From the IMG/VR virus record IMGVR_UViG_3300032233_001678, positions 1-41,371 of that record: DNA of 41,371 nt. One strand, written 5' to 3'. Under the pieces are notes generated by a model. That model made no database searches. It worked only from the letters and a program-made list of their open reading frames with translations, and had not been told where the DNA came from. A program made the position numbers and the translations under genes. Below, piece after piece: positions 2,950 to 36,092 of this stretch; the stretch's first letter is position 1, and each line of letters starts with the position of its first letter. This DNA is from a virus (taxonomy: Duplodnaviria; Caudoviricetes).

Positions 2950-4221
2950 ATGTCTTACACAAGAATCCCTGTCGAAAACGACAAAAACCTCGAAATATTT
3001 ACTATTGAAGATTTCTTAACAGATGAAGAATGTGATCATTTATGTAATCTAATAGAAAGAAGTAATGTAAGGTCTACAGTATCTGGAACGGGTTATACCC
3101 AAAGTGTTGTTAGTGACTTTAGAACAAGCTCAACAGCAACTTTAAATAATGGAGATCCAATAGTAGATGCTATCGATACAAGAATTGCAGATGAATTAGG
3201 AGTACCAAAAGAAAATGGGGAATCATTTCAAGGCCAATTATACGAAGTAGGACAACAATTCAAACATCACCACGATTATTTTAGTGGGGACAGTTATAAT
3301 AACCATTGCTTATTCAGCGGACAAAGAACATACACTTGTATGATCTACCTAAATGATGTTGAAGAGGGTGGTGAAACAGATTTCTTAGAAATTAATACTA
3401 CTTTCTCTCCTAAAAAAGGAATGGCTATAGTTTGGAAAAATTCAAACGGAACTGGTACAGAAAATCCTGCTTCATTACATGCTGGTATGCCTGTTATTAA
3501 AGGCAGAAAAATGATTATAACAAAGTGGTATAGAGAACATAAGTGGGATATGGCTAGAGATACTAAATTAAAGGAGCAATTTGAAAAACAAATGGCAGCT
3601 GTCCAAACCAAAGCCCAACCTGTTTTCTCTAAAACATTTAAATCAGCTGATGATCTTCCTAGATTATCTCCATTAGGATTTAAAGTGGTAAAAGTACCTA
3701 CTAATACTTGGAGATTAATTCAAGAAGCATATAAACTATTAGAAAACGTAAAGACAGAAGAAAACTGGGAAGGTATTACAAACTTTATTTATGATAAAGA
3801 CGGTAACGCTCCTGTTGAAATCTACAACATGGACTATTGCCATAGAATTAAAGAAATTATCCAGGAAGAATTACAACCAGTTCATGAAGAGTTTATTGGT
3901 AATAAAGAAAAACTTGTACCAAAATGTATTTATGGTATTAGATCTTATAAAAATGGTGCTATATTAAAAAACCATACTGATACTTTACTTACACATCATA
4001 TATCATCTATTATTATCGTTGATAAAAAAGTAGATAAAGATTGGCCATTAGATATTCAAGACCATGAAGGTAATTGGCATCAAGTTTATACTGAACCTGG
4101 TGATATGATTCTATATGAATCTGCTACTAATTTACATGGTAGAATAGAGCCATTTGAAGGTGAATATTACAGAAATTTCTTCTTACATTATACATTAGCG
4201 GATTATAAATTTATAGGTTAA
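2950..4221 (+). CDS. two-domain 2OG-Fe(II) dioxygenase; N-terminal prolyl-4-hydroxylase-like domain plus a second 2OG-Fe(II) domain
   Basis: Domain 1: DFLTDEEC, RTSS, YEVGQQFKHHHDY, QRTYTCMIYLNDVEEGGETDF, LHAGMPV..GRK..ITKW. Domain 2: YGIRSY..GA.LKNHTD, PGDMILYES, HGR. Confidence 0.9.
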   Translation: MSYTRIPVENDKNLEIFTIEDFLTDEECDHLCNLIERSNVRSTVSGTGYTQSVVSDFRTSSTATLNNGDPIVDAIDTRIADELGVPKENGESFQGQLYEVGQQFKHHHDYFSGDSYNNHCLFSGQRTYTCMIYLNDVEEGGETDFLEINTTFSPKKGMAIVWKNSNGTGTENPASLHAGMPVIKGRKMIITKWYREHKWDMARDTKLKEQFEKQMAAVQTKAQPVFSKTFKSADDLPRLSPLGFKVVKVPTNTWRLIQEAYKLLENVKTEENWEGITNFIYDKDGNAPVEIYNMDYCHRIKEIIQEELQPVHEEFIGNKEKLVPKCIYGIRSYKNGAILKNHTDTLLTHHISSIIIVDKKVDKDWPLDIQDHEGNWHQVYTEPGDMILYESATNLHGRIEPFEGEYYRNFFLHYTLADYKFIG

Positions 4222-4223
4222 CA

Positions 4224-7200
4224 ATGGACTATGTTGTTTACAGCACTAGTAATTCCGACTATCAGTCTTGGCAAGGTCGGTTATTAGAACACTCATTTAA
4301 AAAAGTTAATCAACCTGGTAAATTGATTAGATTATGTAGCTTTAATGCTCATGATCCTCATAGACCCTTTGACACTTCTGATATTGCCGAAGTTATACAA
4401 TTACCAGATTACAGAACTAGATGGAGAGAATTTACTAACGATCTAGATAAGGATTATGGTATTGCAAACAAAACAGAATCTCTTAAATACTGGCTATCTA
4501 ACTATCCCGGACTAAAAGATACAGATAATGTATTATTTATTGATCCCGATATGGTATTTGTAAAACCAGTTACTGAAACAACAACTCAAGGTACTGTTAT
4601 TGCTCAGAGGTGGATTGATGATGGTTCAGAAAATGGTAAACCTTTCCAAACATATGCAAGTCATATTAAGGATAAGTTAAAACCGGATACTGTATTTATG
4701 TATCCTTATATTGCAACTGTAGGTGATTTAAAAAAGATAGTTAATAATTATGTTGATTTAACCTACAAAATGAGATTAGATAATTATCCTCATTTGTGGG
4801 AATCTGAAATGTATGCTTTAATTACTTCTACTTTAGAACAAGATATAAAAGTAAAAACATATGACAATTTAGGTTTTTGTCTTACTTGGGCTGATAGAGA
4901 AAAATACACAAGCAAAGAGTTCTCTGATTCTGTTTCAATACTGCATTTTCCATGGAGTGTAGATGATAAAGATGGTAATAGATTATTTAATAAACAAGAC
5001 TATACCCCTCTTACTTTAAGAGACCATTGGCAAAGACCTGATGCTAATAAAGCAACTAGTTTTTTAGAAAGAAAATTCTTACAACTTTTAGATCATTACA
5101 ATTTAGAAAAACAAGTACAATTTTATTGGAACGATTATGAATTAATTGATTCTGTATTTAATTATACTCCAAAAGATAAATACATAGTATTTAGACCCTG
5201 GCCCGGTGGACCTAATAATGTTAGAATGTCTTTAGAATTAGCATCGTGTATTGCTTTTTTATTAGATTATACTTTGGTTATTCCATCTGATTTTTTTACT
5301 GATCATTCACAAAATAAAGATTTTTTTCATTTATTATTTGATACTAAAGATTTAGGAATTAAAACAATATCTTTTAATGATTTTAAAATTAAATTTAATA
5401 TTAATTCATGGGATGAAGTAAGTAAAATTTCTCATATCTTAACTGAAGATCTAGTAGGTACTCTTTTAATAACAGAAACACCACAAGAAGATATAATTAA
5501 AGGAAGAAAAATATTACATTTAGATGAACTTAAAGATAAAAATATATTATACTTTGATAGAAATCTATTAGGAAATTTTTATTTAAATATATACAGCGAT
5601 CGTCTTCCTGAATTATGTAAATTTGTAGCTCGCCATATTCACTATAAAAAAGAAATATTTCTTGAAGCACGCAAAGCAATAGACTTTTTAAACCCTAATT
5701 ATTATGCTATTCATATCCGTAGAGGTGATTTCCAGTATCATGATTTAAAATTACCAATTGAAACGATATACAATAACATAAAAAATGTTATACCTGAAGG
5801 CGCTAAATTATATATTTCAACAGACGAAAAGGATAAATTATTTTTTAGTTTACTAAAACAACATTATAATATTTTCTTTTATGATGATGTTAAACATTTA
5901 ATATTTTCCGACATTAATACGGATTTGATAGGACCTATTGAACAAATAATATGCACGGAAGCTACAACATTTATAGGTAATAAATTATCTACTTTTTCAA
6001 CTTATATATACCGTTTAAGAGGTTATATGAAACATATTACTGATAAACGATTCTTAACATATAATGTTGAATGTCACCCTAATGTAGAAGAAGATTATTG
6101 GTGGATGGCTACTTGGGCTAGAGATTATTCTGAAGTATTTGAATCTATAAATAAAATTAAATACTTCAACTCACAACTCCCACCCCCAGAACCTAAAAAA
6201 ATATTTGTATCTGTAGCATCTTACAGAGATCCTCAACTAACTTCTACTATTGATAGTTTACTTACTAACCAAAGTGGTGAGAATAAAATTATTGTGGGTG
6301 TGTGTATGCAGGATACAGAAGAAAATTATAATGAGTTTAAATATAAGGATCACTCAAACGTAATTACTCATTTTATTCCTTATCAAGAGGCAAAGGGTGT
6401 TGGGCCTGCTAGATATTTAATTCAACAAGAACTATATACTAACGAAGACTACTTCTTACAAATCGATTCACACAGTAAATCAATCAAGGATTGGGATAAA
6501 ATATTAATAAACCAAATAAATAGGTGTCCTAGCTATAAAGCTATATTATCTACTTACCCTAACGCATATGATCCAGATGATTTAGAGGAAAAATATTTTA
6601 ATCATAAAACTTGTCCTTGGTTAAAAATAGAACGCTTTACAGAAAAACAAAAACTAGTTGCTACTAGTGCTGGTACAGTAGATAAAGATTACCCTATATT
6701 AGGATTTTGGTGTGCTGCTGGTTTCTTATTTACTAGAGGAGAGTGGACTAAAGAAGTACCATACAGTACTGAATTTTATTTTTCTGGTGAAGAAGATCAT
6801 ATGTCAGTACTATCACATGCTATGGGCTGGGATGTTTATGTACCTGAATCTTCTACTATATGGCATAACTATACTGATACTAGAATGCAAAGTCCTAAAA
6901 AGTATAGACCATTGCATTGGGAAGACCACACCGATATAAACCATAATTTAGAGTCAATTTCATCTATATATAATGAAAAACCTGAGTATAAGCGTCAACC
7001 ATCTGAATTTTTAGAATTAGCTAAACGAATATCTAACTTTAATAAAACAGTTAACATTGAGATAGAATTTAATTATGATAATATTCCAATGCATGATATT
7101 TCTAAAGAAGTATTAGTAATTATATTCGCATTCTTTAATTTAGAAAATCAAGAAATATTCCGTCCTGATATAACAGATATTGATATAATTAATCGTAGTA

Positions 7201-7343
7201 AAAATAATATATTCTTTAATATACCTGAACACATCCACCACCAAATTAATTATTGTACTTGGTTTGTTAAGTATACTGATGACACTTTTAGTGAACGTCT
7301 AGTATTACCAATCCAAAGACAATTAAATAAATATTTAATTTAA
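4224..7343 (+). CDS. multidomain protein O-glycosyltransferase: HPAT/SGT1-like (approx. aa 1-295), O-fucosyltransferase-like (approx. aa 320-645) and GT60 Gnt1-like (approx. aa 660-935)
   Basis: YQSWQ..LL.HSF..V.QPG..IRL, NK, IDPDMVF, YPY, WESEMYA; then GGPNNVRMSLE, AIHIRRGDF, LYISTDE, EQIIC..A..FIG..LSTFS; then IFVSVASYRDPQL, LQIDSH, AAGFLF, FSGEE. Confidence 0.75.
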   Translation: MDYVVYSTSNSDYQSWQGRLLEHSFKKVNQPGKLIRLCSFNAHDPHRPFDTSDIAEVIQLPDYRTRWREFTNDLDKDYGIANKTESLKYWLSNYPGLKDTDNVLFIDPDMVFVKPVTETTTQGTVIAQRWIDDGSENGKPFQTYASHIKDKLKPDTVFMYPYIATVGDLKKIVNNYVDLTYKMRLDNYPHLWESEMYALITSTLEQDIKVKTYDNLGFCLTWADREKYTSKEFSDSVSILHFPWSVDDKDGNRLFNKQDYTPLTLRDHWQRPDANKATSFLERKFLQLLDHYNLEKQVQFYWNDYELIDSVFNYTPKDKYIVFRPWPGGPNNVRMSLELASCIAFLLDYTLVIPSDFFTDHSQNKDFFHLLFDTKDLGIKTISFNDFKIKFNINSWDEVSKISHILTEDLVGTLLITETPQEDIIKGRKILHLDELKDKNILYFDRNLLGNFYLNIYSDRLPELCKFVARHIHYKKEIFLEARKAIDFLNPNYYAIHIRRGDFQYHDLKLPIETIYNNIKNVIPEGAKLYISTDEKDKLFFSLLKQHYNIFFYDDVKHLIFSDINTDLIGPIEQIICTEATTFIGNKLSTFSTYIYRLRGYMKHITDKRFLTYNVECHPNVEEDYWWMATWARDYSEVFESINKIKYFNSQLPPPEPKKIFVSVASYRDPQLTSTIDSLLTNQSGENKIIVGVCMQDTEENYNEFKYKDHSNVITHFIPYQEAKGVGPARYLIQQELYTNEDYFLQIDSHSKSIKDWDKILINQINRCPSYKAILSTYPNAYDPDDLEEKYFNHKTCPWLKIERFTEKQKLVATSAGTVDKDYPILGFWCAAGFLFTRGEWTKEVPYSTEFYFSGEEDHMSVLSHAMGWDVYVPESSTIWHNYTDTRMQSPKKYRPLHWEDHTDINHNLESISSIYNEKPEYKRQPSEFLELAKRISNFNKTVNIEIEFNYDNIPMHDISKEVLVIIFAFFNLENQEIFRPDITDIDIINRSKNNIFFNIPEHIHHQINYCTWFVKYTDDTFSERLVLPIQRQLNKYLI

Positions 7344-7349
7344 TTAAAA

Positions 7350-8015
7350 ATGATAGAATTAAATAATGTCACTTTATGCGCTGCTAGTAGTGTTGAAATA
7401 ACTCAACATATAAATGCTTTAAAAATATGTTCCCAGCATATTAAATTTGCAAAAGTAAAATTTATATCAGATAAAGAAGTAAATGAACCTAATATTGAAT
7501 GGGCAAAATGTGAAGAAATGAAAAATATTCATGATTTTAATTTTTTTATGGTAAATGATTTTCCTCAATATATTGATACTGATTTTGTTTTAGTAATACA
7601 GGCTGATGGGTTTATAGCTAATCCTAATAAATGGACAGACACATTTTTAGAATATGATTATATTGGAGCTCCTTGGAGAGACGAACCTGAAAAAGGATTT
7701 ACAGGAGATCGTAGAGTAGGAAATGGTGGATTTAGTTTAAGATCTAAAAAACTTATTGATTTACCAATTAAATTAAATTTACCTAATAGAAATAGAGAAA
7801 AAGATTTATGGAATGAAGACCAATATTATAGTACTTTTCAAAGAGAAATACTACAAGAAAATGGATGTAAATTTGCTCCCTTAGAGGTTGCAAAATACTT
7901 TTCTCATGAATTAACGTGCAGCGATATAGAAGGAATAGAACCTTTTGGCTTTCATGGAAGAGATAGAAGAGATGAATGGTGTACTGAAAACAATATAAAC
8001 TTAAAACAAGAATGA
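7350..8015 (+). CDS. DUF5672-like putative glycosyltransferase
   Basis: LVIQADG, YDYIGAPW, VGNGGFSLRSKK, NED, A..FS.E, PFGFH. Confidence 0.8.
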   Translation: MIELNNVTLCAASSVEITQHINALKICSQHIKFAKVKFISDKEVNEPNIEWAKCEEMKNIHDFNFFMVNDFPQYIDTDFVLVIQADGFIANPNKWTDTFLEYDYIGAPWRDEPEKGFTGDRRVGNGGFSLRSKKLIDLPIKLNLPNRNREKDLWNEDQYYSTFQREILQENGCKFAPLEVAKYFSHELTCSDIEGIEPFGFHGRDRRDEWCTENNINLKQE

Positions 8016-8941
8016 GCAAAATATTTATAGCAATAGCTAGTTATTTAGACTATGAAATAAAACACACAATACTTGATTGTATTGATAAAGCTAAACACCC
8101 AGAAAACTTACGTTTTGGTGTCTGCTTGCAATATGATGAAAGGGAAAAAACAAATGAGCATATTTTAGATTTTTTAGAAAGTAAATTACCAGTTAAAGTC
8201 TTAAAATACCATCATACTGAATCTGGAGGTGGGTGTTGGGCTAGAAACTTAGCTCAGTCGTTATATAATAATGAAGAATATAGTCTACAAGTAGATTCAC
8301 ATACTAGATTTATTCAAAACTGGGATGAAATTGTAATTAATGATTATAATGAGTTAAAAAAAACAGTAAATAAACCATTATTATCCTTTTTACCTCCATC
8401 TTACTCTAGAATGGATGATAAAGGAATTGACTATGATTTTAGAAATATAAATGAATTAGATAAAATTACTTTATCTAAAATCCAACATATTACTAATGAA
8501 TATTGGTTTACAAATGGTGGATATGGAGATGAACAAAACATTAACTTTAAACCAGCTAGTGTAATTATATTATATGGTGGTTTTGTATTTGCTGAAGGCA
8601 ATTGGGTAGTAGAAGTAAATCAAGATCCTGAACATTATTATACAGGTGAAGAACTTGCATTAACAATTAGATCTTATACTCATGGATATGATTTGTACAC
8701 ACCAAGCCAAATAGTAGCTTGGCATAGAGCACATACCCCAATATCAGGAATTAAAAAACACTTTAATAATAGCCCAGAAGAAATAGCTACTGCTAAACAC
8801 AGACGCGCTATTGAACGATTAAAAATGTTAGTTGAAGGTAATGGAGATTTAGATAGATATGGTTCGGGTAATGTAAGAACAGTAGATCAATATGCTGAAT
8901 TTGCTGGAATTGATTTTAAAACACAAACATTAATTAGATAA
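8012..8941 (+). CDS. GT60-like (Skp1 hydroxyproline GlcNAc-transferase Gnt1-like) glycosyltransferase
   Basis: IFIAIASYLD, GGCWARNLAQ, LQVDSHTRF, YTGEE, RSYTHGYDLYTP, YG.G..RT...Y..FAGIDF. Confidence 0.8.
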   Translation: MSKIFIAIASYLDYEIKHTILDCIDKAKHPENLRFGVCLQYDEREKTNEHILDFLESKLPVKVLKYHHTESGGGCWARNLAQSLYNNEEYSLQVDSHTRFIQNWDEIVINDYNELKKTVNKPLLSFLPPSYSRMDDKGIDYDFRNINELDKITLSKIQHITNEYWFTNGGYGDEQNINFKPASVIILYGGFVFAEGNWVVEVNQDPEHYYTGEELALTIRSYTHGYDLYTPSQIVAWHRAHTPISGIKKHFNNSPEEIATAKHRRAIERLKMLVEGNGDLDRYGSGNVRTVDQYAEFAGIDFKTQTLIR

Positions 8942-8947
8942 ATTTAG

Positions 8948-9751
8948 ATGCCTAAAACTATAATTTTAAATCAATCAACACTCCACCCAAAATACTCTTT
9001 AGTAGATGCTGCTTGTAGAGTTACATGGGGGATGGAAGAACACGAACATGTTAAAACTTTTCACTATTACGGAAATGTAAGTTCTAATGGTAATATAATT
9101 GAAGATATATTTGATTGTGTGCCTTTAAAAGAAGGAATTTGTATAGACAAATTTAATAGACTGGTTCAAAATATTACAGACAGAGTAAATGTCTCCGCTA
9201 CAGATAAAAGAGAAGATAAGCGTGGGGAAAGGTTAATAGGTGCTTTAGAGTACTGTTTGAATAATTTTGAATTTGATTACATATATAGAACTTCTGTTAC
9301 TTCGTATGTTGATATAAATAAATTATATAATTATACACATATTCTTAGCAAAGAAAAAGTATATAATGGTCCTAAATATTATTTAGAAAATGAAGGATGG
9401 GCAATGGATCCTAATTGGAAATCATCATTTGTAGCTAGCTTTAACTGTATAATGTCTAGGGATGTAGTTCAAACTTTAGTAAATAATAAAGACTTATTTT
9501 TAAACATAAATGCTCCTGAAGATATAGCAACCGGTAGAGTTTTAGTAGATAATTTAAAATATGCTAATTTAAAAGAACAAGACACAAATCAAACATGGAT
9601 TGGATATGGAAGAGAGATTGAAATGTCTCAAAAAGAAATAATTGAATACAATTCAAATCCATATGTTTTTAATTATAAATTAGGAACAGATAAAATATAT
9701 ATACTTAATTATTTAAAAATTCACCAATTAATAAAACAACATTATGCCTAA
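8948..9751 (+). CDS. putative GT31/galactosyltransferase-like protein (paralog 1)
   Basis: ALEY..NNFEFDYIYRT..TSYVD, MSRDVV, PEDIATG. Confidence 0.6.
   Translation: MPKTIILNQSTLHPKYSLVDAACRVTWGMEEHEHVKTFHYYGNVSSNGNIIEDIFDCVPLKEGICIDKFNRLVQNITDRVNVSATDKREDKRGERLIGALEYCLNNFEFDYIYRTSVTSYVDINKLYNYTHILSKEKVYNGPKYYLENEGWAMDPNWKSSFVASFNCIMSRDVVQTLVNNKDLFLNINAPEDIATGRVLVDNLKYANLKEQDTNQTWIGYGREIEMSQKEIIEYNSNPYVFNYKLGTDKIYILNYLKIHQLIKQHYA
9242..9292 (+). repeat. 51-nt exact direct repeat, copy 1
   Basis: gctttagagtactgtttgaataattttgaatttgattacatatatagaact is identical to 10020-10070. Confidence 0.95.
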
Positions 9752-10487
9752 AATTATAATATTAAACCAATGTACAACTGAACCTAGATGGCAAAACATA
9801 GATCAATTAGGCCAGAATACCTGGGGAAAAATAAACCACCCAGATGTTAAGATGTTTCATTACTATGGAGCTTTCGACGGCGCTGGTAAACCATATGATA
9901 GATTTTCTAGTATTCCTAATAGAGGTGAAGTTATTACGTTACCTAATAATATTATGGTTTGTGGAGTTGAAGATGTTTTAGGAGACTATTTTGATCCTAG
10001 AGGAGAAAGATATATAATGGCTTTAGAGTACTGTTTGAATAATTTTGAATTTGATTACATATATAGAACTACTTGTACCTCTTATATTGACATATATAAA
10101 ATGTATGATTTCTTTGATAAACTAGAAATAAAAGAAAAATTTTATGATGGTTTAAGAAATATGTATGAATATCAATATCTTTTTACTAGTGGTTATCATG
10201 TGATGTTATCTAGAGATGTTGTTAATGTAATCATTGAACATAAAAACGAATATTTAAAATTAAAATTACCTGAAGACGTAGCAGTGGGTGCTTTACTTAC
10301 ACACATTTTAAAATACGCTAGTTTTGAAAATAATCCTCACCATAATACTAGTGCTACACCCTTAGGTAATAATGGTTTTGATCATAAAAATTATTTAAAT
10401 ACTCCTGTTTTTAATTATAGATTAAATACTAATTTAAGAGAACAGCTTTTAGAAATCCACAATTATTTAGAAGATAATAGAAAATAA
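9744..10487 (+). CDS. putative GT31/galactosyltransferase-like protein (paralog 2)
   Basis: Same motifs as 8948-9751: FDYIYRTTCTSYID, FTSG...LSRDVV, PEDVAVG. Confidence 0.6.
   Translation: MPKIIILNQCTTEPRWQNIDQLGQNTWGKINHPDVKMFHYYGAFDGAGKPYDRFSSIPNRGEVITLPNNIMVCGVEDVLGDYFDPRGERYIMALEYCLNNFEFDYIYRTTCTSYIDIYKMYDFFDKLEIKEKFYDGLRNMYEYQYLFTSGYHVMLSRDVVNVIIEHKNEYLKLKLPEDVAVGALLTHILKYASFENNPHHNTSATPLGNNGFDHKNYLNTPVFNYRLNTNLREQLLEIHNYLEDNRK
10020..10070 (+). repeat. 51-nt exact direct repeat, copy 2
   Basis: Identical to 9242-9292. Confidence 0.95.
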
Positions 10488-10497
10488 AAAATTGAAT

Positions 10498-11061
10498 ATG
10501 AATTTAACTGAATTATATTACTATGATGTAAACCAATACCATAGCGATAAAGGGGTAGATCACGATTATATAAATTTATACTATAACGATGAATTTAATT
10601 CTAAAAAAAATGAATTTTTAAATATTTTAGAAATAGGAATTTGGAATGGAGGAAGTATAAAGTTATGGAATGATTTTTTTTCAAATAGCAAAATTATTGG
10701 ATTAGATGCTTATTTTAAGGATAATACTAATAGTATGTTTGCGAATAATCCTCAAATAACTCTTATGCAACTTGATGCCTATACAGATAGTACTGTTTTA
10801 TTATTTGAAGATAATTATTTTGATTATATTATAGATGATGGTCCCCATACTTTAGAATCTCAAATTCTTTGCATTCAAAAATATTTACCTAAAATAAAAA
10901 GTGGTGGTAAAATAATTATTGAAGATATTCAAAAAATAGAATGGATTGAAGCTTTAGAAAATTGTATAGATAAAAATATAGCAGAAAGCTGGAGAACAAT
11001 AGATATAAGAGAATCTAAAGGAAGATATGATGATATAATATTTGAAGTAACTAAAAAGTAA
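10498..11061 (+). CDS. class I SAM-dependent (sugar O-)methyltransferase
   Basis: SDKG..H.Y, ILEIGIWNGGS, FDYIIDDGPH, GGKIIIEDI. Confidence 0.85.
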   Translation: MNLTELYYYDVNQYHSDKGVDHDYINLYYNDEFNSKKNEFLNILEIGIWNGGSIKLWNDFFSNSKIIGLDAYFKDNTNSMFANNPQITLMQLDAYTDSTVLLFEDNYFDYIIDDGPHTLESQILCIQKYLPKIKSGGKIIIEDIQKIEWIEALENCIDKNIAESWRTIDIRESKGRYDDIIFEVTKK

Positions 11062-11084
11062 GTAACTAAGTAATATTTATTCAC

Positions 11085-11975
11085 ATGCCAATAACATTTT
11101 CAAATATAAGCGGAACAGGTAATTTTACATTAGTAAACAATACTAATAGTGGAAATATCGTTATGTCTGTTTCTGGATCGTTACCTGCTCCTGTTAGTGG
11201 ATCTGTTTTTTCACAAATAGACACTATTATGCCTTATTTAAGAGCAAATAGTGGTAGTTTAAGAAATCCAAATTTCTTTGTTTACTTTTTAGATGGTAAC
11301 GTTCCAAACGGCTTTAACATCAATGATGGAGGTAATGATATGTTTGATGGAGGCAATTATACTGCACCTTGGCTACGTAATAACACTAGCTATATATCAG
11401 GCAATACAATACCAGTACCATCTCCATCTCTAAATTATACTTCTCAATCAGCAACTTTAACTGACACTAACTTCTACTATGCGGCTTCTGGATATATTCA
11501 GGCTGCAGGTTCGTTTCCTACAGGTCCTCAAAGTGCAATTTATCACCCACTAACAATGATTGGTGCTAGAAGCGGTTCAGGACCTATTGGATTCCAAAAA
11601 GCAGGTAATATTGGAGCTGATGGCGGTGGTTCATTAGTTACTGCTAGTATATATACTGGATCAGTAGTTAACGGATTTACTACTTATGCTTTCTATCGCC
11701 AATCGTTTGGTCAAGCATCTGACCCATCAATATGTGACGTTTATGTATTATTAGGTCATCCAAACTGGGGTTCTGTATTTGATACAGTAGTATCTAGTTC
11801 AGCTGTAGGTACTCAAATTCAAGGTGCTGCTTTATATGCTACTGGTTCATCTAGTGAAATATTAGCAATGACAACATTATTAAGTAGTCCTACATCATCA
11901 GCAATACCATTTAATAATGTTAAAACAGTAGTTGATAACTACATTACATTAGTAAAAACAGTACTTAACTACTAA
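11085..11975 (+). CDS. Ser/Thr/Gly-rich protein, possibly a virion structural or decoration protein
   Basis: Low-charge S/T/G/N-rich composition, DGGNDMFDGGN motif, and its own ATATTTAT upstream motif. Confidence 0.5.
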   Translation: MPITFSNISGTGNFTLVNNTNSGNIVMSVSGSLPAPVSGSVFSQIDTIMPYLRANSGSLRNPNFFVYFLDGNVPNGFNINDGGNDMFDGGNYTAPWLRNNTSYISGNTIPVPSPSLNYTSQSATLTDTNFYYAASGYIQAAGSFPTGPQSAIYHPLTMIGARSGSGPIGFQKAGNIGADGGGSLVTASIYTGSVVNGFTTYAFYRQSFGQASDPSICDVYVLLGHPNWGSVFDTVVSSSAVGTQIQGAALYATGSSSEILAMTTLLSSPTSSAIPFNNVKTVVDNYITLVKTVLNY

Positions 11976-12011: not shown

Positions 12012-14588
12012 ATGTATCAATCAATATTTTACGAGGGTAAACCCAACTATAAATTCCACTTACGCGACGATAAGAAAGGCTGGACCGAATTCAGCTATAC
12101 TGTACCTCGCTTCGCAATTGATCCTAATGGTGAATACCCAACATTAGATGGTAAACGAGCTAAAGCCGTTACCAAATATGAATGGAATGATAATCATCTA
12201 TACGAGTCTGATATTGACAGACTAACCGCTGTATTAATTGATAAATACAAAGACAGCGATGATGCCCCTGAATGGCAAAATATAGTTTACTTCGATATTG
12301 AGTGTGAAATTGGAGGTGCCTTAACTACAGAATACATTAAAACAGCACCAATGAAGATTACTTCAATCTCATTATATGATGCTACTGCTAAAAAATACTA
12401 CTGTCTAATTCTAGACGAGAAAAATGAATTAACATCTATTGATGAAGAAGATAAGCAGGTAATGCCTTGCTCTAATGAAGAGCAACTATTATCTCTATTC
12501 TTAGACTTATGGGAATCAGTTGATCCAACTATCATTACAGGATGGAATAGTGGGTTCTTTGACGTTCCATACTTATACTATCGTTTATGCAATGTGTTAG
12601 GTAAGGAAGAAGCATCTCGTTTATCTCCTATCCGCAAATTCAAATTTACTGAATGGGATCAAGCTCAACCAATTGAAATTGGAGGTATTAATCATCTTGA
12701 TTACTTATTACTATATAAGAAATATAATCCTAAAAACGAACCATCTTATAAATTAGGAGATATAGGAACTAAATATGTTAATCTAGGTAAGATTGAATAT
12801 GAAGGTAACTTAGATCGTCTATTCAAAGATGATGTGAACAAATATATCGAGTACAATATTCGTGACGTTGAGATTATTATTGAACTAGAAAAGAAATTTA
12901 AATTTATTGAATTAACAGTTGCTATCTGTCATTTATGCCATGTGCCTTATGAAATGATCTACTTATCAACTGTACTAAATGATGGCGCTATATTAACTTA
13001 CTTAAAACGTAACAATATAGTATCACCAAATAAACCAACCACTACTAACCCATCACTTAAAGAAGCATATGAAGAATATGCTGGTGGGTACCTAAAAGAC
13101 CCAGTACCAGGATTATATGAATGGGTTATAGATTTGGACTTTACATCGCTGTATCCGTCCATTATACGCTCGTTAAACATTGGTATTGAGACGTTCGTTG
13201 GACGAATAGTTAATAATGATAAGTACGACAATAACTGGACTATGAATGATCTAAAACAAATGGATCCTGAAGATACAGTTGTAGTTGAACGATTAACTGA
13301 AAAACGTACTACTAATCAAGCACAAGTAAAAGTAGGTACCTTAATCGCTCTGATTGAGGAAAATAACTGGCTAATAGCAGCATCGGGAGCTATGTTTAGA
13401 ATAGATAGACCATCAGTAGTATGTGAAGTATTAACTGATTGGTTTAATAAACGTGTTGAATATAAGAACCTAATGAAGAAAGCCTATAAAGCAGGTGATG
13501 CTGTTAAAGGCGAATTCTATAATAGACGACAACACGCCTATAAAATTAAATTAAATGACGTTTATGGTTGTTATGCTATTAATGGCTGGCGCTATACTGA
13601 TGGTCATAAGATGATATCTAAAGCCATTACATTAACAGGACAGCGTGTAACACAAGAATCAATTAAATTCTGTAATGAGTGGATGAACACACAATTAGGT
13701 ACTGAAGATAAAGACTATGTTGTTACTTCAGATACCGATTCATTATTTATTCAGGTTAAGGACTTAGTATTACAACGTTATCCCGAAACTAAAACTAAGG
13801 ACGAATACATTAAAGCAACATTAGAGATTACTACCGAAATACAGAAAGCAGCAAACGACAATATTGATAAAGTAACTAGAGAATACTTCAACGTTAAGGA
13901 ACGTCCTCACTACTTCGAATTAAAACAGGAAGTAATTATTGAGAGAGGTTACTTTGCAGGTAAACGTCGTTATGCAATGTATATTGTAAATAAGGAAGGT
14001 GTTACTGTTGATGAATTAGATATGAAGGGACTAGACCTAATGAAATCAAATATGACTCCAATGTATTCTAAATTTGGGGAGAAATTGATCCAAGATATTA
14101 TGTTTGGTAAGCCTAAAGCAGAAATCGATCAACAAATAATCGATTTTAAGAAATACGTTAAGGATATTCCTATTGAATTACTAGCTAAACCAACTGGGGT
14201 TAAGAATGTAGAATCATATATTGAGCGTGCTCCTAGAACAGGTGAGATATTTAGTACATTGAAATTAAAATGTCCTATTAATGCTAAAGCAGCTATCCAC
14301 TATAATGATCTACTTAAGTTTAAGAAAGTACATAGACAATATCCATTATTCACTGCTGGTGATAAGATGAAATATATTCAACTTAAAACTAATCCATACA
14401 ATATCGATGTAATAGGATTTACAGGTAATGACCCTGAAGTGATTAATAAGATAATTGAGGAATTTGCTGATAGAGAGGAGGGATTCGAATCAACACTACT
14501 AAATAAATTGAAGAGTATCTATGAGGATCTAGGATGGACATTCCCATCACTAAACGATAAGGTAAATAAATTCTTTAAATTTGTATAG
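12012..14588 (+). CDS. family B DNA polymerase (T4 gp43-like)
   Basis: Exo motifs FDIE and GWNS..FDVPY; polymerase motifs DFTSLYPSI, KIKLNDVYG, SDTDS, KRRYA. Confidence 0.97.
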   Translation: MYQSIFYEGKPNYKFHLRDDKKGWTEFSYTVPRFAIDPNGEYPTLDGKRAKAVTKYEWNDNHLYESDIDRLTAVLIDKYKDSDDAPEWQNIVYFDIECEIGGALTTEYIKTAPMKITSISLYDATAKKYYCLILDEKNELTSIDEEDKQVMPCSNEEQLLSLFLDLWESVDPTIITGWNSGFFDVPYLYYRLCNVLGKEEASRLSPIRKFKFTEWDQAQPIEIGGINHLDYLLLYKKYNPKNEPSYKLGDIGTKYVNLGKIEYEGNLDRLFKDDVNKYIEYNIRDVEIIIELEKKFKFIELTVAICHLCHVPYEMIYLSTVLNDGAILTYLKRNNIVSPNKPTTTNPSLKEAYEEYAGGYLKDPVPGLYEWVIDLDFTSLYPSIIRSLNIGIETFVGRIVNNDKYDNNWTMNDLKQMDPEDTVVVERLTEKRTTNQAQVKVGTLIALIEENNWLIAASGAMFRIDRPSVVCEVLTDWFNKRVEYKNLMKKAYKAGDAVKGEFYNRRQHAYKIKLNDVYGCYAINGWRYTDGHKMISKAITLTGQRVTQESIKFCNEWMNTQLGTEDKDYVVTSDTDSLFIQVKDLVLQRYPETKTKDEYIKATLEITTEIQKAANDNIDKVTREYFNVKERPHYFELKQEVIIERGYFAGKRRYAMYIVNKEGVTVDELDMKGLDLMKSNMTPMYSKFGEKLIQDIMFGKPKAEIDQQIIDFKKYVKDIPIELLAKPTGVKNVESYIERAPRTGEIFSTLKLKCPINAKAAIHYNDLLKFKKVHRQYPLFTAGDKMKYIQLKTNPYNIDVIGFTGNDPEVINKIIEEFADREEGFESTLLNKLKSIYEDLGWTFPSLNDKVNKFFKFV

Positions 14589-15775: not shown

Positions 15776-16219
15776 ATGACACAATTACAACGTTGGGCAA
15801 TGGACCCATTTGACATCGTTTGGAAAAATTTCCTAGATGTAAACTCACAATTCGCAACATTTGAAAACAAAATCAACTATCCCGTTGATATTTACGAAAC
15901 AGAAAACGGTTTACGATTTGAATTAGCCGTAGTAGGTCTCAATCAAGAAGACTTAGACATTCAAGTAGAGGGAGATACCCTTAGAATCACACACGACAGA
16001 AAAGCAGCAGAAGCAGAACGTAACTATATCCAAAGAGGTATAGCTAGACGCTCGTTTGATTTAGCTTACAAAGTAGCAATGAAATTTGATTTAGCTCAAT
16101 TAACAGCTGCTATGGATAAAGGCTTGTTAATTATTGATATTCCTTTATCAGAAGAAAGAGCACCAAAGAAAATTTCAATTAATGCTCCGCTTGAAGTAAA
16201 ACCAAGCAAGAAGAAATAA
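15776..16219 (+). CDS. small heat shock protein Hsp20/IbpA-like
   Basis: NYPVDIYE, ELAVVG, YIQRGIARRSF, GLLIIDIP. Confidence 0.93.
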   Translation: MTQLQRWAMDPFDIVWKNFLDVNSQFATFENKINYPVDIYETENGLRFELAVVGLNQEDLDIQVEGDTLRITHDRKAAEAERNYIQRGIARRSFDLAYKVAMKFDLAQLTAAMDKGLLIIDIPLSEERAPKKISINAPLEVKPSKKK

Positions 16220-16221
16220 GT

Positions 16222-16252
16222 TTTGAAACCTTAAGGACCTGTCGTATCTTTA
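16222..16252 (+). promoter_or_regulatory. Bacteroidota-type promoter for the groES operon
   Basis: TTTG(16222)-N19-TATCTTTA(16245). Confidence 0.55.
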
Positions 16253-16267
16253 TAAAACAAATTTAAT

Positions 16268-16558
16268 ATGAATATAAAACCATTACACAACCACGTTGTG
16301 ATTAAACAGCAAGACGAAACTGAAACAATGTATGGAAACATTGTAGTACCTGACTTAGGTAAAGAAAAACCATTGATGGGGGAAATTATTGCCTCTGGAC
16401 CTGGATTAATTAATTTGAACGGAGTATTAATTCCAAACACTGTGGAAGTGGGTCAGATTGTAATATTTCCTGCATTTGGAGGACAAAAAATTACCGTTGA
16501 CGGTGAAGAGTATGTCGTTTGTAAAGAACAAGATTTAATCGCAATTTTAGAAAAATAA
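16268..16558 (+). CDS. groES: co-chaperonin GroES
   Basis: IKPLHNHVVIK, GNIVVPD..KEKP..G.IIASGPG, EQDLIAIL. Confidence 0.95.
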   Translation: MNIKPLHNHVVIKQQDETETMYGNIVVPDLGKEKPLMGEIIASGPGLINLNGVLIPNTVEVGQIVIFPAFGGQKITVDGEEYVVCKEQDLIAILEK

Positions 16559-16565
16559 AAATACA

Positions 16566-17075
16566 ATGATATTAAACGTAGAACAAAGGATAGAAGAACT
16601 ATCTAACAGTGGGTGCGATATATGCGAACATTTTCCTTTAATGTTAAAATATGGAAAACAATGTGAACACATTACTGAAATGGGAGTAAGAGATGTTGTA
16701 TCAACTTGGGGATGGATTGGATCAAACCCTAAAAAACTAATATGCTATGATATACAGCCATGCTCTGTAGACAATGCTGCTAAGGCATGTGCTGCTTTAG
16801 GAATAGATTTTAGTTTTCATGTAGCCGATACTCGTGAAATTGAAATTGAAGAAACTGACTTATTATTTATTGACACCGAGCATACTTACGATCAAATTCA
16901 AAAAGAATTAGAATTGCATGGTAATAAAGCTAGAAAATTTATCATATTTCATGATACAGCATGGGCTCACGATATGAATAGAGCTATTAAAGAATTTATG
17001 GAAGCTAATCCACATTGGGTAGATGAAGAAGAAGTTACAAATAATCATGGTTTTAAAATTATTAAAAGAAAATAA
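16566..17075 (+). CDS. class I SAM-dependent methyltransferase
   Basis: DICEH, ITEMGVR..VST, DLLFIDTEHTY, FIIFHDT. Confidence 0.8.
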   Translation: MILNVEQRIEELSNSGCDICEHFPLMLKYGKQCEHITEMGVRDVVSTWGWIGSNPKKLICYDIQPCSVDNAAKACAALGIDFSFHVADTREIEIEETDLLFIDTEHTYDQIQKELELHGNKARKFIIFHDTAWAHDMNRAIKEFMEANPHWVDEEEVTNNHGFKIIKRK

Positions 17076-17077
17076 AA

Positions 17078-18697
17078 ATGAGTAAAATAATAAGCTTCGA
17101 TCGTGAAGCAAAAGAAAAACTACAAGCAGGTATTGATAAAGTAAATAAAGCAGTAGCAGTTACAATGGGTCCTTTCGGACGCAATGTATTGATTGAAAAA
17201 GAACACGGACAAGTAGCATCAACTAAAGACGGTGTTACAGTAGCTAAAACCATTACTTTAGAAGATCCAATTGAAAACATGGCTGCTACCGTTATTAAGC
17301 AAGCTGCATCAAAAACAGTTGATCAAGCAGGTGATGGTACAACATCATCAACAGTATTAGCTAATGCTATTGCAACGCAAGCATTAAATGCTACGTCGCA
17401 TGCTTCAACTAATGCAACTCAAATTAAACGTGGTATTGAAGCCGCTGTTAAAGAAGTAGTTGCTGAATTAAAAACAATGTCTGTAGACATTACTAATGAA
17501 GAGCAAATCAAGCAAATTGCCACCTTATCAGCTAATGGTGATACTGAAATTGGAGAATTAGTAGCTACAGCAATTGATAAAGTAGGTCGTGATGGTATTG
17601 TAACTGTAGAGGAATCTCGTTCAGGTGAGACTTCACTTGAGATAGTAGAAGGTTTACAGTTTGATAGAGGTTATAAATCACCTTACATGGTAACAGATAA
17701 TAACTCAATGCAAGCAATATTAACGGATGCCTTAGTATTATTATATGATGGTAAAATCAGTGCTGTAAAGGACTTATTACCAGTATTAGAGCGTGTATCA
17801 TCTGATAATAAATCATTATTAGTTATCGCTGAAGATATTGATGGTGAAGCGTTATCTACTCTTATTGTAAATAAGATGAGAGGTATCTTAAAGGTAGTAG
17901 CTGTTAAAGCTCCTGACTTTGGAGAACGCAGAACATTAATTTTAGAAGACATCGCTGCTGTAACAGGTGGTACTTTAATTTCACCACAAAAAGGTATGAA
18001 ATTAGAACGTTTTAATATGGATTGGTTTGGTAAAGCTAGAACTATTACTGTAGGTAAAGAAACAACTACTATCGTTGATGGTAAAGGAAATACAGATTTA
18101 ATTGATACTCGTATTTCAGAATTAAAAGCTCAAATCGATAATTCAAATTCACCATATGAAGTTGAACGTTTACAAGATCGTTTAGCTAAAATGGTAGGTG
18201 GAGTTGCTATTATCAATGTAGGCGGTGGTACTGAAATTGAGATGAAAGAAAAGAAAGATCGTATTGATGATGCTTTACAAGCTACAAAAGCTGCTTTAGA
18301 AGAAGGTATCGTTCCGGGTGCGGGTATGGCTTTAGTTAATGCTAAGTTCTCTATTACTGATCGCGATAAAACCGATTTTGGTAAAGGTAAACAAATAGTA
18401 TTTCAATCATGTAATACTCCACTTAAACAAATTCTATCTAATGCGGGTGAATCATATAGTGAGTGGTATCTTAAATTATTAAAAGTTACAGATTCAAAGT
18501 CTGTTCCTAATATTAATAATGGAGAAATGGTAGATGCATTTGAAGCAGGTATCATCGATCCAACTAAAGTGGTACGTTGCGCATTAGAAAACGCAGCACA
18601 CGCAGCAATTACATTATTAATGACTGAATGTGTGATCCATGATAAACCATCTGATAAGAAGAAAGACGAAGGTGATATGGCAGGATTTGGAATGTAA
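17078..18697 (+). CDS. groEL: chaperonin GroEL
   Basis: GPFGRNV, TKDGVTVAK, AGDGTTS, GLQFDRGY, GIIDPTKV, and a C-terminal GDMAGFGM. Confidence 0.98.
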   Translation: MSKIISFDREAKEKLQAGIDKVNKAVAVTMGPFGRNVLIEKEHGQVASTKDGVTVAKTITLEDPIENMAATVIKQAASKTVDQAGDGTTSSTVLANAIATQALNATSHASTNATQIKRGIEAAVKEVVAELKTMSVDITNEEQIKQIATLSANGDTEIGELVATAIDKVGRDGIVTVEESRSGETSLEIVEGLQFDRGYKSPYMVTDNNSMQAILTDALVLLYDGKISAVKDLLPVLERVSSDNKSLLVIAEDIDGEALSTLIVNKMRGILKVVAVKAPDFGERRTLILEDIAAVTGGTLISPQKGMKLERFNMDWFGKARTITVGKETTTIVDGKGNTDLIDTRISELKAQIDNSNSPYEVERLQDRLAKMVGGVAIINVGGGTEIEMKEKKDRIDDALQATKAALEEGIVPGAGMALVNAKFSITDRDKTDFGKGKQIVFQSCNTPLKQILSNAGESYSEWYLKLLKVTDSKSVPNINNGEMVDAFEAGIIDPTKVVRCALENAAHAAITLLMTECVIHDKPSDKKKDEGDMAGFGM

Positions 18698-21901: not shown

Positions 21902-23362
21902 ATGAAAGAAGGTTATATTCCGCAAGAGCAACGCAAGAAAATTTTATTACTATGTGACGATATTCGAATGACAAGTGGTATTTCCACTATGGCAAGAGAA
22001 ATCGTCATTGGTACTTCACACCGATTCAATTGGGTGAATATTGGAGGAGCAATTACACACCCAGATAAGGGTAAAAGATTCGATCTTAATGATGACACAA
22101 ATAAAAATGCAGGTATTCCTGATGCTAGTGTTTATCTTTATCCTGTAGACGGCTATGGTAGTCCAGAATTAATCAGACAAATGATTGAAATGGAAAAACC
22201 AGATGCCCTAATGATGTTTACTGATCCAAGGTATTGGATTTGGTTATTTCAAATGGAACAAGAGATTAGGAAACAAATTCCTATTATCTATCTAAACATT
22301 TGGGATGACTTACCTTACCCAATGTATAATAAAGCTTATTATGAATCATGTGATGGATTATTAGCTATTAGCAAACAAACAGAAAACATCAATCGCTCAG
22401 TATTAGGACCAGAATTAGCAGCTGAAAAAGTTATTAAATACGTTCCTCACGGTATTAATGAAGAGTTTTTCTTCCCTATTACAACTGAAAATCCTGAATA
22501 CTTAGTATTACAAGACTTTAAAAAACGTCTATATGAAGAAAAAAATTACGATTTTACTTTACTATATAATGCGCGTAACATCCGTCGTAAATGCGTTCCT
22601 GATTTAATGTTAGCCTGGAAGATCTTTATCGACCAACTACCAAAAGAAAAACAGGATAAATGTGCTTTAGTATTACATACACAAAAACGTGATGAAAATG
22701 GTACCGATTTAGTAGCTGTAAAAGATATGTTATTCGGTAAATTACCTCAATACAATATCATATTCGATGAAAATAAGTATCCAACTAACATTATGAATTT
22801 ACTTTATAATGCTACTGATGGATGTGCTTTAATTTCATCAAACGAAGGTTGGGGATTATCATTAACAGAAGCAATGATGTGTGGTAAACCAATTATTGCT
22901 ACAGTAACAGGTGGAATGCAAGACCAAATGCGTTTTGAAGACGAAAATGGTGAGTGGATTAAATTCACTGAAGAATTCGGATCAAATCATAGAGGCAAAT
23001 ATAAAAAACATGGAGTTTGGGCTTACCCAGTATTCCCATCTAACATGTCATTAGTTGGATCTATACCTACACCTTATATCTTTGATGATAGAGCAGAACC
23101 ATTTGATATTGCTGAACAGATTAAATGTATGTATTTAGCTAAAACTGAAGTTCCTGATATGTTTAGTAGAATTGGAGAATTAGCTTATGAGTGGGTAACT
23201 TCAGACGAATCAATGATGTCAGCTAGATTAATGTCTAAAAACGTTATTGATGGTGTTGAAGAAACATTAGAGAAATTCCAACCTAGATATTCATTTGAGT
23301 TGATTAAAGTAGAACCACTTGAACAACCACTTCACTTTGTAAAAAACGTTATCGCAAAATAA
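21902..23362 (+). CDS. GT-B (GT4-like) glycosyltransferase
   Basis: VPHGI, RNIRRK, SSNEGWGLSLTEAMMCGKPII. Confidence 0.9.
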   Translation: MKEGYIPQEQRKKILLLCDDIRMTSGISTMAREIVIGTSHRFNWVNIGGAITHPDKGKRFDLNDDTNKNAGIPDASVYLYPVDGYGSPELIRQMIEMEKPDALMMFTDPRYWIWLFQMEQEIRKQIPIIYLNIWDDLPYPMYNKAYYESCDGLLAISKQTENINRSVLGPELAAEKVIKYVPHGINEEFFFPITTENPEYLVLQDFKKRLYEEKNYDFTLLYNARNIRRKCVPDLMLAWKIFIDQLPKEKQDKCALVLHTQKRDENGTDLVAVKDMLFGKLPQYNIIFDENKYPTNIMNLLYNATDGCALISSNEGWGLSLTEAMMCGKPIIATVTGGMQDQMRFEDENGEWIKFTEEFGSNHRGKYKKHGVWAYPVFPSNMSLVGSIPTPYIFDDRAEPFDIAEQIKCMYLAKTEVPDMFSRIGELAYEWVTSDESMMSARLMSKNVIDGVEETLEKFQPRYSFELIKVEPLEQPLHFVKNVIAK

Positions 23363-23363
23363 T

Positions 23364-24668: not shown

Positions 24669-24861
24669 AGAATTTATAATCTGGCTTAAAGGATTTACAG
24701 AAGGCGTTCATGATTTTAATATCACCCCAAAACAGTGGGATTTATTAAAAGAGAAACTAGCTGAAGTAAGTGATGAATCTCGTAATACAATAGCGTACTA
24801 CTCTAAAGATGGTAGGCCCCTTTGGTATACAAACACAAATCAAAATTTAGATAATGATTAA
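24658..24861 (+). CDS. hypothetical protein
   Basis: Translationally coupled ORF with EFIIWLKGF...PKQWD. Confidence 0.65.
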   Translation: MTNKEFIIWLKGFTEGVHDFNITPKQWDLLKEKLAEVSDESRNTIAYYSKDGRPLWYTNTNQNLDND

Positions 24862-25252
24862 CGAAAAATTAACGATATGCCCTAGATGCGGTAGTGACGC
24901 TTGTCATGAAGCATCAAATGAAAAGCTCACAGTATGGAGTTGTTTTGGATGTGGGTTTACAGCTAATTCCACATTAACTACAGATAAATTAGAAGAAGTA
25001 GAAGTAGTAATGCCTCAATTATATAAAGATATTAGGTTTATGGATGAACAAGGATATTATTGGTATCCTAGCACAGTAATGTTAGAAGACAAATCAATGG
25101 CATTTGTTGATGGTAAATCCATTACTGAATGGAAATGGGCTGGCGTTCAATCTAAAGACGGTAAGGCTGATATGACTACTGTAAAATACTTTGAAGAAAA
25201 AGACTTTATGGAAGCCCTAGATTATATAGGCTTCTTTGAAAAACAAAAATAA
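24854..25252 (+). CDS. zinc-ribbon hypothetical protein
   Basis: CPRCGSDAC...CFGCGF. Confidence 0.7.
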   Translation: MINEKLTICPRCGSDACHEASNEKLTVWSCFGCGFTANSTLTTDKLEEVEVVMPQLYKDIRFMDEQGYYWYPSTVMLEDKSMAFVDGKSITEWKWAGVQSKDGKADMTTVKYFEEKDFMEALDYIGFFEKQK

Positions 25253-25257
25253 AATTT

Positions 25258-27709: not shown

Positions 27710-27710
27710 T

Positions 27711-36008: not shown

Positions 36009-36014
36009 CAAGAT

Positions 36015-36065: not shown

Positions 36066-36092
36066 GGGTAACCAGAAATGGTTACCCTTTTT
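36065..36092 (+). terminator. rho-independent terminator
   Basis: AGGGTAACCA-GAAA-TGGTTACCCT followed by a T run. Confidence 0.88.

Follow-up and report, generated by a model that had tools for sequence, protein, structure and literature searches.

A putative prolyl hydroxylation and O-glycosylation cassette in an uncultured aquatic phage

Introduction

To our knowledge, O-glycosylation of hydroxyproline (Hyp) is regarded as plant, algal, and protist chemistry. Here, we describe a gene cassette at positions 2950–11975 of IMG/VR record IMGVR_UViG_3300032233_001678, a 41,371-nucleotide stretch from an uncultured aquatic phage (Caudoviricetes) that was analyzed at its full length (hereafter, the window), other parts of the genome being outside the record. 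The cassette encodes a double 2-oxoglutarate (2OG)-Fe(II) dioxygenase, one domain of which is predicted to be of the prolyl 4-hydroxylase (P4H) type, next to a single chain with three glycosyltransferase (GT) domains. We propose, with a probability of roughly 0.6, that it serves as an accessory cassette for hydroxylating and O-glycosylating repeat stalks on proteins of the phage itself.

In plants and green algae, P4H acts first, after which HPAT1–3 (GT95) modify Hyp and SGT1/SERGT1 (GT96) modifies Ser (PMC8012813 and PMC7773692; articles are cited here and below from their accessible parts). The phage cassette resembles this route in the fold and catalytic residues of its algal-type P4H, in its HPAT-family domain, and in the [A/S/T/V]-Pro candidate substrates of its relatives, but differs in that the fusion lacks a membrane anchor or signal and is joined to POFUT2-like and GT60 domains, the oxygenase is doubled, and Phe stands in place of Tyr140. 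The Skp1 route of Dictyostelium and Toxoplasma comprises PhyA, Gnt1 (GT60), and PgtA (PMC6939170) and shares with the cassette a cytoplasmic hydroxylase followed by a GT60 enzyme, together with fucosyltransferase-like and possible galactosyltransferase genes; in the phage, however, the hydroxylase is of the collagen/algal type, the candidate substrates are repeats rather than one Skp1 proline, and the fucosyltransferase-like domain resembles POFUT2, not GT74. Judged by this comparison, the cassette is a system that would work like the plant P4H–HPAT/SGT1 route, shares GT60 with the Skp1 route, and is a member of neither.

Among viruses, chlorovirus PBCV-1 also encodes a P4H of the same structural type (vCPH, PDB 5c5t; E = 7.7e-19), but its host is an alga and the accessible parts of PMC7019647 describe no linked HPAT/GT60 fusion. 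Mycobacteriophage glycosyltransferases modify the proteins of their own particles (Freeman et al. 2023, as cited in PMC12619734), as is proposed for the present cassette; in that system, the accessible parts of PMC12619734 report no hydroxylation step, and the glycans are placed at the C-termini of capsid and tail-tube proteins rather than on Pro-rich stalks. Cyanophage S-SCSM1 (MK867354.2) carries an O-FucT gene directly followed by a homologue of the second type of oxygenase (ORF113–114), with carbamoyltransferase and GDP-fucose genes nearby, but the HPAT and GT60 domains had no match in it, and its authors assign the genes to modification of the host cell wall (PMC9602691). The full fusion was found in none of the cultured phages among 50,697 records, and GT60 was found in four Xanthomonas/Stenotrophomonas phages, of which Xanthomonas phage XacN1 combines GT60 with a carbamoyltransferase. 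The open-access literature yielded no description of the triple fusion or of phage Hyp glycosylation, subscription papers and supplements being outside the search; phage transferases or oxygenases are mentioned in PMC12619734, PMC12801897, PMC11706807, and PMC9602691, whose accessible parts make no link between hydroxylation and glycosylation.

Results

A double oxygenase with a P4H-type domain

The cassette consists of eight open reading frames (ORFs), all on the + strand: 2950–4221 (423 aa), 4224–7343 (1039 aa), 7350–8015, 8012–8941, 8948–9751, 9744–10487, 10492–11061, and 11085–11975. A gap of 2 nt separates the oxygenase gene from the fusion gene, and spacings of −8 to +23 nt follow between the later genes, in agreement with the ORF positions and 2-nt gap given in an earlier sequence-only reading of the window.

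The gene at 2950–4221 (+) encodes two 2OG-Fe(II) dioxygenase domains. A 2OG-FeII_Oxy_3 match exceeded the curated Pfam cut-off (E = 1.5e-17), and residues 16–196, within the N-domain (residues ~10–200; collagen/algal P4H type), matched P4Hs from Bacillus, Chlamydomonas, human, and chlorovirus with E values of 3.5e-31 to 7.7e-19 (BaP4H, 3.5e-31; CrP4H, 2.7e-25). The top Foldseek match of the predicted model (predicted local distance difference test [pLDDT], 93) was 3gze, an algal P4H with (Ser-Pro)5 bound (E = 6.7e-19; root-mean-square deviation [rmsd], 2.0 Å; TM, 0.84 of target), and the first 29 ranks among the matches listed were all P4Hs. After alignment of the N-domain residues to BaP4H and CrP4H, the iron triad H107-D109-H177 and the 2OG lysine K187 of the DSBH fold, as well as R126, were found to be kept in at least 119 of 121 alignment rows, with Arg126 at the position of CrP4H Arg161, a residue that binds peptide (PMC11252719). 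By sequence and fold, the N-domain is predicted to be of the peptide prolyl 4-hydroxylase type.

The sequence-only reading had recognized this P4H-type domain and made no mention of a second, intact oxygenase domain behind it (residues ~232–423), which belongs to a family without a name that is common in phages. The C-domain has its own His-X-Asp...His motif (H342-D344-H396), kept in at least 119 of the 121 rows, and its Atlas matches comprised only clusters without a name (0.97) and 2OG families (0.91).

A fusion of three glycosyltransferase domains

The gene at 4224–7343 (+) encodes an HPAT/SGT1-like GT-A domain (residues 1–295), a POFUT2-like GT-B domain (~317–645), a GT60 GT-A domain (~655–940), and a C-terminal beta domain without known family. 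Three Pfam matches exceeded their curated cut-offs, as the sequence-only reading had supposed: HPAT (PF23452; residues 4–257, E = 1e-10, 41.9 bits against a cut-off of 23.9), O-FucT (PF10250; 320–602, E = 5.9e-18, 66 bits), and GlcNAc/GT60 (PF11397; 710–900, E = 3.8e-48), the last with 165 and 170 bits for the fusion GT60 and the stand-alone GT60, respectively.

The fold of the predicted model (pLDDT, 89.8) agreed with this assignment. The closest solved folds of domain 1 were GT8-like (glycogenin-type GT-A, Z 16.9); domain 2 was closest to POFUT2 (5foe; Z 19.8, rmsd 4.2, 281 aligned), followed by FUT1 (Z 15.9) and NodZ (Z 14.6); and domain 3 was closer to ppGalNAc-T1 (Z 21.7, rmsd 3.3, 264 aligned) than to SpsA (Z 16.7). 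For domains 2 and 3, protein-directed enzymes scored 3–5 Z units above polysaccharide enzymes, and no solved structure was found for the HPAT/SGT1 (GT95/GT96) or GT60 families in the searches made. The structural comparison suggested by the sequence-only reading returned P4H, POFUT2, and ppGalNAc-T as top matches; the contrary outcomes that it had named, namely better alignment to polysaccharide or DNA glycosyltransferases, a nucleobase or small-molecule dioxygenase, and a lack of co-occurrence, did not come about.

The motifs D107 and D109 (DxD, domain 1), H497, R499, and R500 (HxRR), S589, T590, and S592 (STxS), and D748 and H750 (DxH, which we take to be the GT60 motif) were invariant in all 52 rows aligned. 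We identified 97 homologues of 571–1819 aa, many of which share all three Pfam domains. The domain-1 profile recovered 1,121 clusters at E values up to 0.001, including a Coleochaete protein and a diatom protein named HPAT-like; two-domain plant proteins, presumably SGT1-like, scored 54–78 bits per domain and unnamed single-domain proteins scored 88–96, and GT95 was not separated from GT96. An initial impression that SGT1 is closer to domain 1 than HPAT was dropped because whole-protein scores were inflated by the presence of two domains. No hydrophobic N-terminal segment that could serve as a membrane anchor was found in the fusion sequence or model, the catalytic domain beginning at residue 1, while HPAT has a Golgi type II membrane anchor in plants (PMC8012813).

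Conservation of the hydroxylase–fusion pair

In the viral, metagenome, and genome collections scanned, 137 loci contained an ORF with both HPAT and O-FucT domains, corresponding to 57 clusters at 90% identity; cluster and record counts cover related genomes, not independent events. An oxygenase gene lay directly upstream of the fusion in 38 of the 47 clusters with at least 1.4 kb of upstream DNA (18 of 25 at 70% identity), so that the neighborhood expected by the sequence-only reading is kept among relatives. For the same 47 clusters, the locus contained a P4H domain in 40 and either oxygenase domain in 42. The pair occurs in at least five gene contexts: between dcd and the family B DNA polymerase (PolB) gene, as in this window; between tail fibre and sheath genes (L008); behind ribonucleotide-reductase-like genes (L030); in bacterial chromosomes; and in giant-virus-labelled contigs. 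In one bacterium (G160; L311:400-18929), a single 1169-aa chain even unites HPAT, GT60, and both oxygenase domains and a separate O-FucT gene adjoins, and the same one-chain order of HPAT, GT60, and double oxygenase was found in P0265.

The cassette was rare in bacteria: in the three groups sampled, 2 of 151, 3 of 301, and 1 of 40 genomes had it. In a tree of the fusion (a quick, midpoint-rooted tree of 32 of the 137 loci, from which no direction of transfer was drawn), rows from phages, bacteria, and giant viruses fell into several interleaved clades. Five long cassette records were searched for PolB without a match, and these records were not placed by PolB. The giant-virus-labelled contigs (L033/L056/L107, L018, L075, and L288-L289) encode the fusion or its split parts. 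Elsewhere in its bin, G004 has a gene in which the double oxygenase is repeated in tandem. In a complete relative without a GT60 or HPAT match, four PF13640 oxygenase genes were seen in tandem (G509:99501-101569).

Repeat proteins as candidate substrates

Many cassette loci carry ORFs of 14–36% proline with Thr-Pro, Ala-Pro, and Ser-Pro repeats, which often space small Cys-rich modules. Such Pro/Thr/Ser/Ala-repeat ORFs lay near the cassette in 14 of the 21 clusters for which 6 kb was available on both sides. Across 48 repeat ORFs, 81% of the prolines were preceded by Ala, Thr, Ser, or Val, and [A/S/T/V]-Pro is the plant glycomodule (PMC11252719). The repeat gene of L008 has tail-fibre genes on one side and the hydroxylase on the other, and the cassette there is followed by sheath and tube genes. 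These candidate substrates are an addition to the sequence-only reading and strengthen it.

An (X-Pro)4 pattern was present in 9 of 13 fusion records versus 0 of 20 PolB relatives without the fusion (Fisher p = 1.9e-5), in a comparison where genomes are related, the two sets come from lineages that were not matched, and serine codons of the AGY type escape the pattern. Seven of eight near-complete relatives had neither GT60 nor more than one repeat match, and the 44 PolB-related loci comprised 38 with neither cassette transferase nor repeat ORF in the available DNA (several being short upstream), 4 with a transferase and no repeat, and 2 with both. In the closest relative, L007 (PolB 97%, hydroxylase 96%, and fusion 81% identical), the slot filled here by the repeat-less 11085–11975 is occupied by an unrelated Pro/Thr-repeat gene of 516 aa. 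In the complete genome G005, which contains the cassette, the repeat ORFs are more than 40 kb away from it; because of this distance, it is plausible that a repeat substrate is encoded elsewhere in the genome of the present phage.

In three bacterial loci, a repeat ORF with a twin-arginine-like leader adjoins the cassette, and in Paraglaciecola, proteins with PqqD, a domain for peptide recognition, are encoded near the cassette, one of them fused to a 2OG oxygenase. The Paraglaciecola locus L281:5929-19738 (G010) resembles those of ribosomally synthesized and post-translationally modified peptides, comprising two small ORFs that have Thr-Pro-Ala-Pro repeats and a twin-arginine-like leader, a PqqD-HprK-like gene, a triple transferase, GT60, an NTP_transf_5 gene, and an oxygenase-PqqD-HprK-like fusion. 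No such long repeat was found at two other Bacteroidota loci or at that of G160. The G160 locus also has PqqD, kinase-like, NTP_transf_5, and GT60 genes, as well as an ORF of 168 aa that combines three short Pro-Pro repeats with a twin-arginine-like leader.

Other genes of the cassette

Directly behind the fusion lies a DUF5672 gene (7350–8015, +; Pfam E = 4e-23), a variable member of the cassette that occupies this place in a subset of relatives, followed by a second, stand-alone GT60 gene (8012–8941, +; Pfam E = 9.6e-50) that is found behind the fusion in many relatives; both had been named correctly from sequence. The next two genes encode probable glycosyltransferases that are paralogues, 37–39% identical to each other. 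The sequence-only label of GT31 was not borne out for either: the protein of 8948–9751 (+) had no Pfam match, and that of 9744–10487 (+) matched Fringe below the cut-off (E = 0.049). Among 13 aligned relatives, Galactosyl_T was reached by one and Galactosyl_T/Fringe stayed below the cut-off in all, and the family profile had no match among solved structures (PDB). The gene at 10492–11061 (+) was assigned to a SAM-dependent methyltransferase by PHROG 21658 (E = 1.2e-15), as proposed earlier, its Pfam match to Methyltransf_24 falling just under the cut-off (E = 2e-5); the enzyme likely acts on the glycan. In L080, a methyltransferase is fused to a protein of the 8948/9744 type.

A NodU/Nol-like carbamoyltransferase is frequent in the cassettes of relatives (L007:6581-8149; L008:14987-16552), and in P0062 it forms a fusion protein with the triple transferase; none is present in the cassette of this window.

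The last gene (11085–11975, +) fills a variable slot before PolB and encodes a Ser/Gly/Thr-rich protein of 6% Pro with only a short Pro linker. It had no family match in Pfam, PHROG, or NCBIfam and no match among cultured phages, and the versions in relatives have a poly-Thr linker, a short Pro linker, or none. An N-terminal anchor shared with the L008 repeat protein was suspected by eye and received no support from comparison. In L343, L345-L348, and L366, relatives of this gene in the slot before PolB carry poly-Thr tracts; those of L345-L348 and L366 follow a different two-gene set (572 aa + 183 aa in L345), not the present cassette, while the L343 tract occurs without that set. NCBIfam provided no name for any cassette gene or for the bacterial precursors.

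Insertion site and flanking genes

Sequence comparison indicates that the cassette is accessory and inserted between a dCTP-deaminase-like gene (2308–2919, +; Pfam) and the PolB gene (12012–14588, +; Pfam and PHROG; 44 related loci). These genes form the left and right borders of a swap site and lie outside the cassette; PolB is directly behind the deaminase-like gene in many relatives, the content of the site often differs between relatives, and most close (PolB-related) relatives lack the cassette. The window flanks encode PolB, a sliding clamp, a clamp loader, GroEL/ES, and ClpP, and these replication and chaperone genes point to a large T4-like phage. Near-complete relatives found via PolB are 161–183 kb in length versus 41 kb for the present record, which by this measure covers approximately one-fourth of the genome, about three quarters lying outside. 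A promoter and terminator scan was uninformative (58 sites versus 67.5 expected; no terminators).

Several other features were noted in the window. FolE, IscU-like, and IscA-like genes lie at 43–2381, and relatives have QueE/QueC/QueD-like ORFs before them (the Que labels being from a look at the sequence alone), which likely represents a 7-deazaguanine pathway next to Fe-S assembly genes. Phage-encoded Hsp20, GroES, GroEL, and a ClpP-like protease were found at 15776–18697 and 31035–31574. A second glycosyltransferase cluster at 21902–31002 comprises two GT1-family genes, a GT2 gene, a DXD-type GT gene, an NAD-dependent epimerase gene, and two FkbM methyltransferase genes; G001 holds homologues of both GT1 genes, the GT2 gene, and the epimerase gene, and this type of epimerase often borders the cassette in relatives. 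Two ORFs at 36013–38893 had weak lipoprotein and cohesin-like matches, and similar-looking genes stand behind repeat genes in L110.

Discussion

Because the hydroxylase–fusion pair is kept across many phages, some marine bacteria, and giant-virus-labelled contigs, often beside repeat proteins, a plant-like sugar coat on these repeat proteins is likely. The N-terminal oxygenase would convert X-Pro to X-Hyp in the host cytoplasm using O2, 2-oxoglutarate, and Fe(II), and the second oxygenase domain would likely hydroxylate another residue or context. The HPAT/SGT1-like domain would start a glycan on Hyp or on Ser/Thr beside Hyp, and the GT60 domain would start one by adding N-acetylhexosamine to Hyp or Thr. 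Gene neighborhoods speak for either of these GT60 acceptors. The POFUT2-like domain, the second GT60, the 8948/9744 proteins, and the methyltransferase would extend and cap the glycans, joined in relatives by the carbamoyltransferase. For the POFUT2-like domain, chain extension is equally possible as fucose transfer to folded TSR/EGF modules, acceptors to which the Cys-rich modules of several repeat proteins may be relevant. The glycosylated stalks may form stiff spacers that resist proteases and bear terminal domains, and they could also mask the particle. The repeat proteins are probably virion-associated, a location that rests on gene neighborhood because they match no structural family, and for this phage the substrate gene would lie outside the 41-kb record, elsewhere in the genome.

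Several results weigh against this proposal. CrP4H Tyr140, which is highly conserved and contacts the target Pro (PMC9676403), corresponds here to Phe104; Phe occupies this position in 119 of 121 rows and Tyr in 2 of 39 of a wider alignment, so the enzyme is better called P4H-like than a strict member of the collagen/algal P4Hs. A phage clade represented by G001 (89% complete), G002, and G003 has the fusion and repeats with no P4H N-domain nearby or in the records; of the two oxygenase domains, this clade retains just a distant, stand-alone relative of the second. In four near-complete relatives, PF13640 oxygenases occur but GT60 does not. The 41-kb window contains no repeat ORF, L358 and L081 have the enzymes without a repeat gene in the available DNA, and only 3 of 76 viral Thr-Pro-repeat loci (80 with flanks, of about 660 estimated, minus 4 duplicates) had a P4H-type gene within 10 kb. 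The repeat proteins and their non-repeat parts matched no structural-protein family in PHROG scans (one L063 segment was left out). The PBCV-1 P4H is active in vitro, yet Hyp was not detected in virion proteins, according to the accessible parts of PMC7019647. These counter-results tell chiefly against an obligatory order of hydroxylation and then glycosylation, and less against the repeats as substrates. The complete hydroxylate-then-glycosylate line proposed in the sequence-only reading accordingly stands as regards co-occurrence (38 of 47 clusters) and the one-chain form, but not as an obligatory arrangement, given the clade without P4H and the GT60-plus-repeat loci without P4H; nothing was found in support of its suggestion that host proteins are targets.

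The same exceptions bear on mucin-type glycosylation, in which the transferases would act on Thr/Ser of the same repeats without Hyp and an optional hydroxylase would modify the stalks in parallel. We regard this as unlikely, without its being far-fetched. The GT60 family includes a Trypanosoma polypeptide GlcNAc-transferase (PMC6939170), and the GT60 domain folds like ppGalNAc-T. In G536 (99% complete), Thr/Ser-Pro repeats lie next to two GT60 genes and PF13640 has no match, which also counts against the hydroxylation proposal, and G532 likewise combines GT60 with such repeats without that match; moreover, the X-Pro-X of the P4H-lacking clade leans to Thr-Pro-Ser (25% versus 10%). However, the hydroxylase is directly upstream in 38 of 47 clusters and in one chain with HPAT and GT60 in G160, the records lacking the P4H N-domain are fragments that still have a second-type oxygenase, and HPAT acts on Hyp and SERGT1 on Ser within Ser-Hyp motifs (PMC7773692).

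That the cluster instead modifies the polysaccharide or lipopolysaccharide of the host surface, for superinfection exclusion or grazer evasion, with the oxygenases as unrelated metabolic genes, is improbable. The O-FucT gene of cyanophage S-SCSM1 and the genes around it have been interpreted in this way (PMC9602691), domain 1 has GT8-like folds as its closest solved structures, and further GT1/GT2/epimerase genes are present at 21902–30161, but domains 2 and 3 best match protein-directed enzymes, the cassette has no export or membrane genes, and the fixed adjacency to a peptide-type P4H and repeat proteins would be left unexplained. Slightly less probable again is a Skp1-like switch, i.e., O2-dependent hydroxylation and glycosylation at a single proline of one host or phage protein. 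The PhyA-Gnt1-Gal-Fuc order (PMC6939170) parallels the oxygenase, GT60, possible GalT, and FucT-like genes, and bacterial P4Hs act on EF-Tu according to PDB titles (5v7y and 4iw3). The top fold and sequence matches are nevertheless repeat-peptide P4Hs, the cassette goes with long repeats rather than one target, most close relatives lack it, and no Skp1-family match occurred among the 46 window ORFs scanned against Pfam (most of the genome being outside the record); the O2-dependent switch entertained in the sequence-only reading is therefore unsupported, the enzyme being of the collagen/algal P4H type and standing beside repetitive proteins.

There is a smaller chance still that the cassette has lost its substrate in this phage and rides as a passenger at the swap site, as might be suggested by the changing content of the dcd-PolB site and by the repeat-less gene found here where L007 (PolB 97% identical) has one with repeats; all reading frames and catalytic motifs are intact, however, approximately three quarters of the genome lies outside the record, and G005 has its repeat genes far from the cassette. 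DNA hypermodification, by hydroxylation of a base and its glycosylation by the transferases, is hardly credible despite the position between the dCTP-deaminase-like gene and PolB and a weak TET-associated GT match in domain 3 (E = 0.018, below the cut-off), since the oxygenase matches P4Hs by sequence and fold and the cassette lies among tail or ribonucleotide reductase genes in other phages and in bacterial chromosomes.

Beyond the proposed hydroxylation and glycosylation of phage repeat stalks, we suggest tentatively, and with a little more doubt than belief, that Hyp O-glycosylation is a mobile prokaryotic module, serving extensin- or arabinogalactan-protein-like stalks on the particles of large aquatic phages and small, exported, PqqD-guided Pro-repeat peptides in marine bacteria, and present in giant viruses as well, with the 1039-aa protein as a one-chain, soluble line for Hyp/Ser/Thr glycosylation. 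The soluble, anchor-free relatives of HPAT/SGT1 and GT60 are material for structural work and for glyco-engineering in Escherichia coli. If the proposed function is true, the 2OG-Fe oxygenases and eukaryote-type glycosyltransferases of phages, two large groups of orphan genes that have so far been read as host-metabolism or cell-wall genes, would gain a concrete and testable job, and Hyp-linked glycans would exist outside eukaryotes. The finding would then bear on the origin of HPAT/SGT1 and GT60 and on the protease resistance and host binding of aquatic phage particles.

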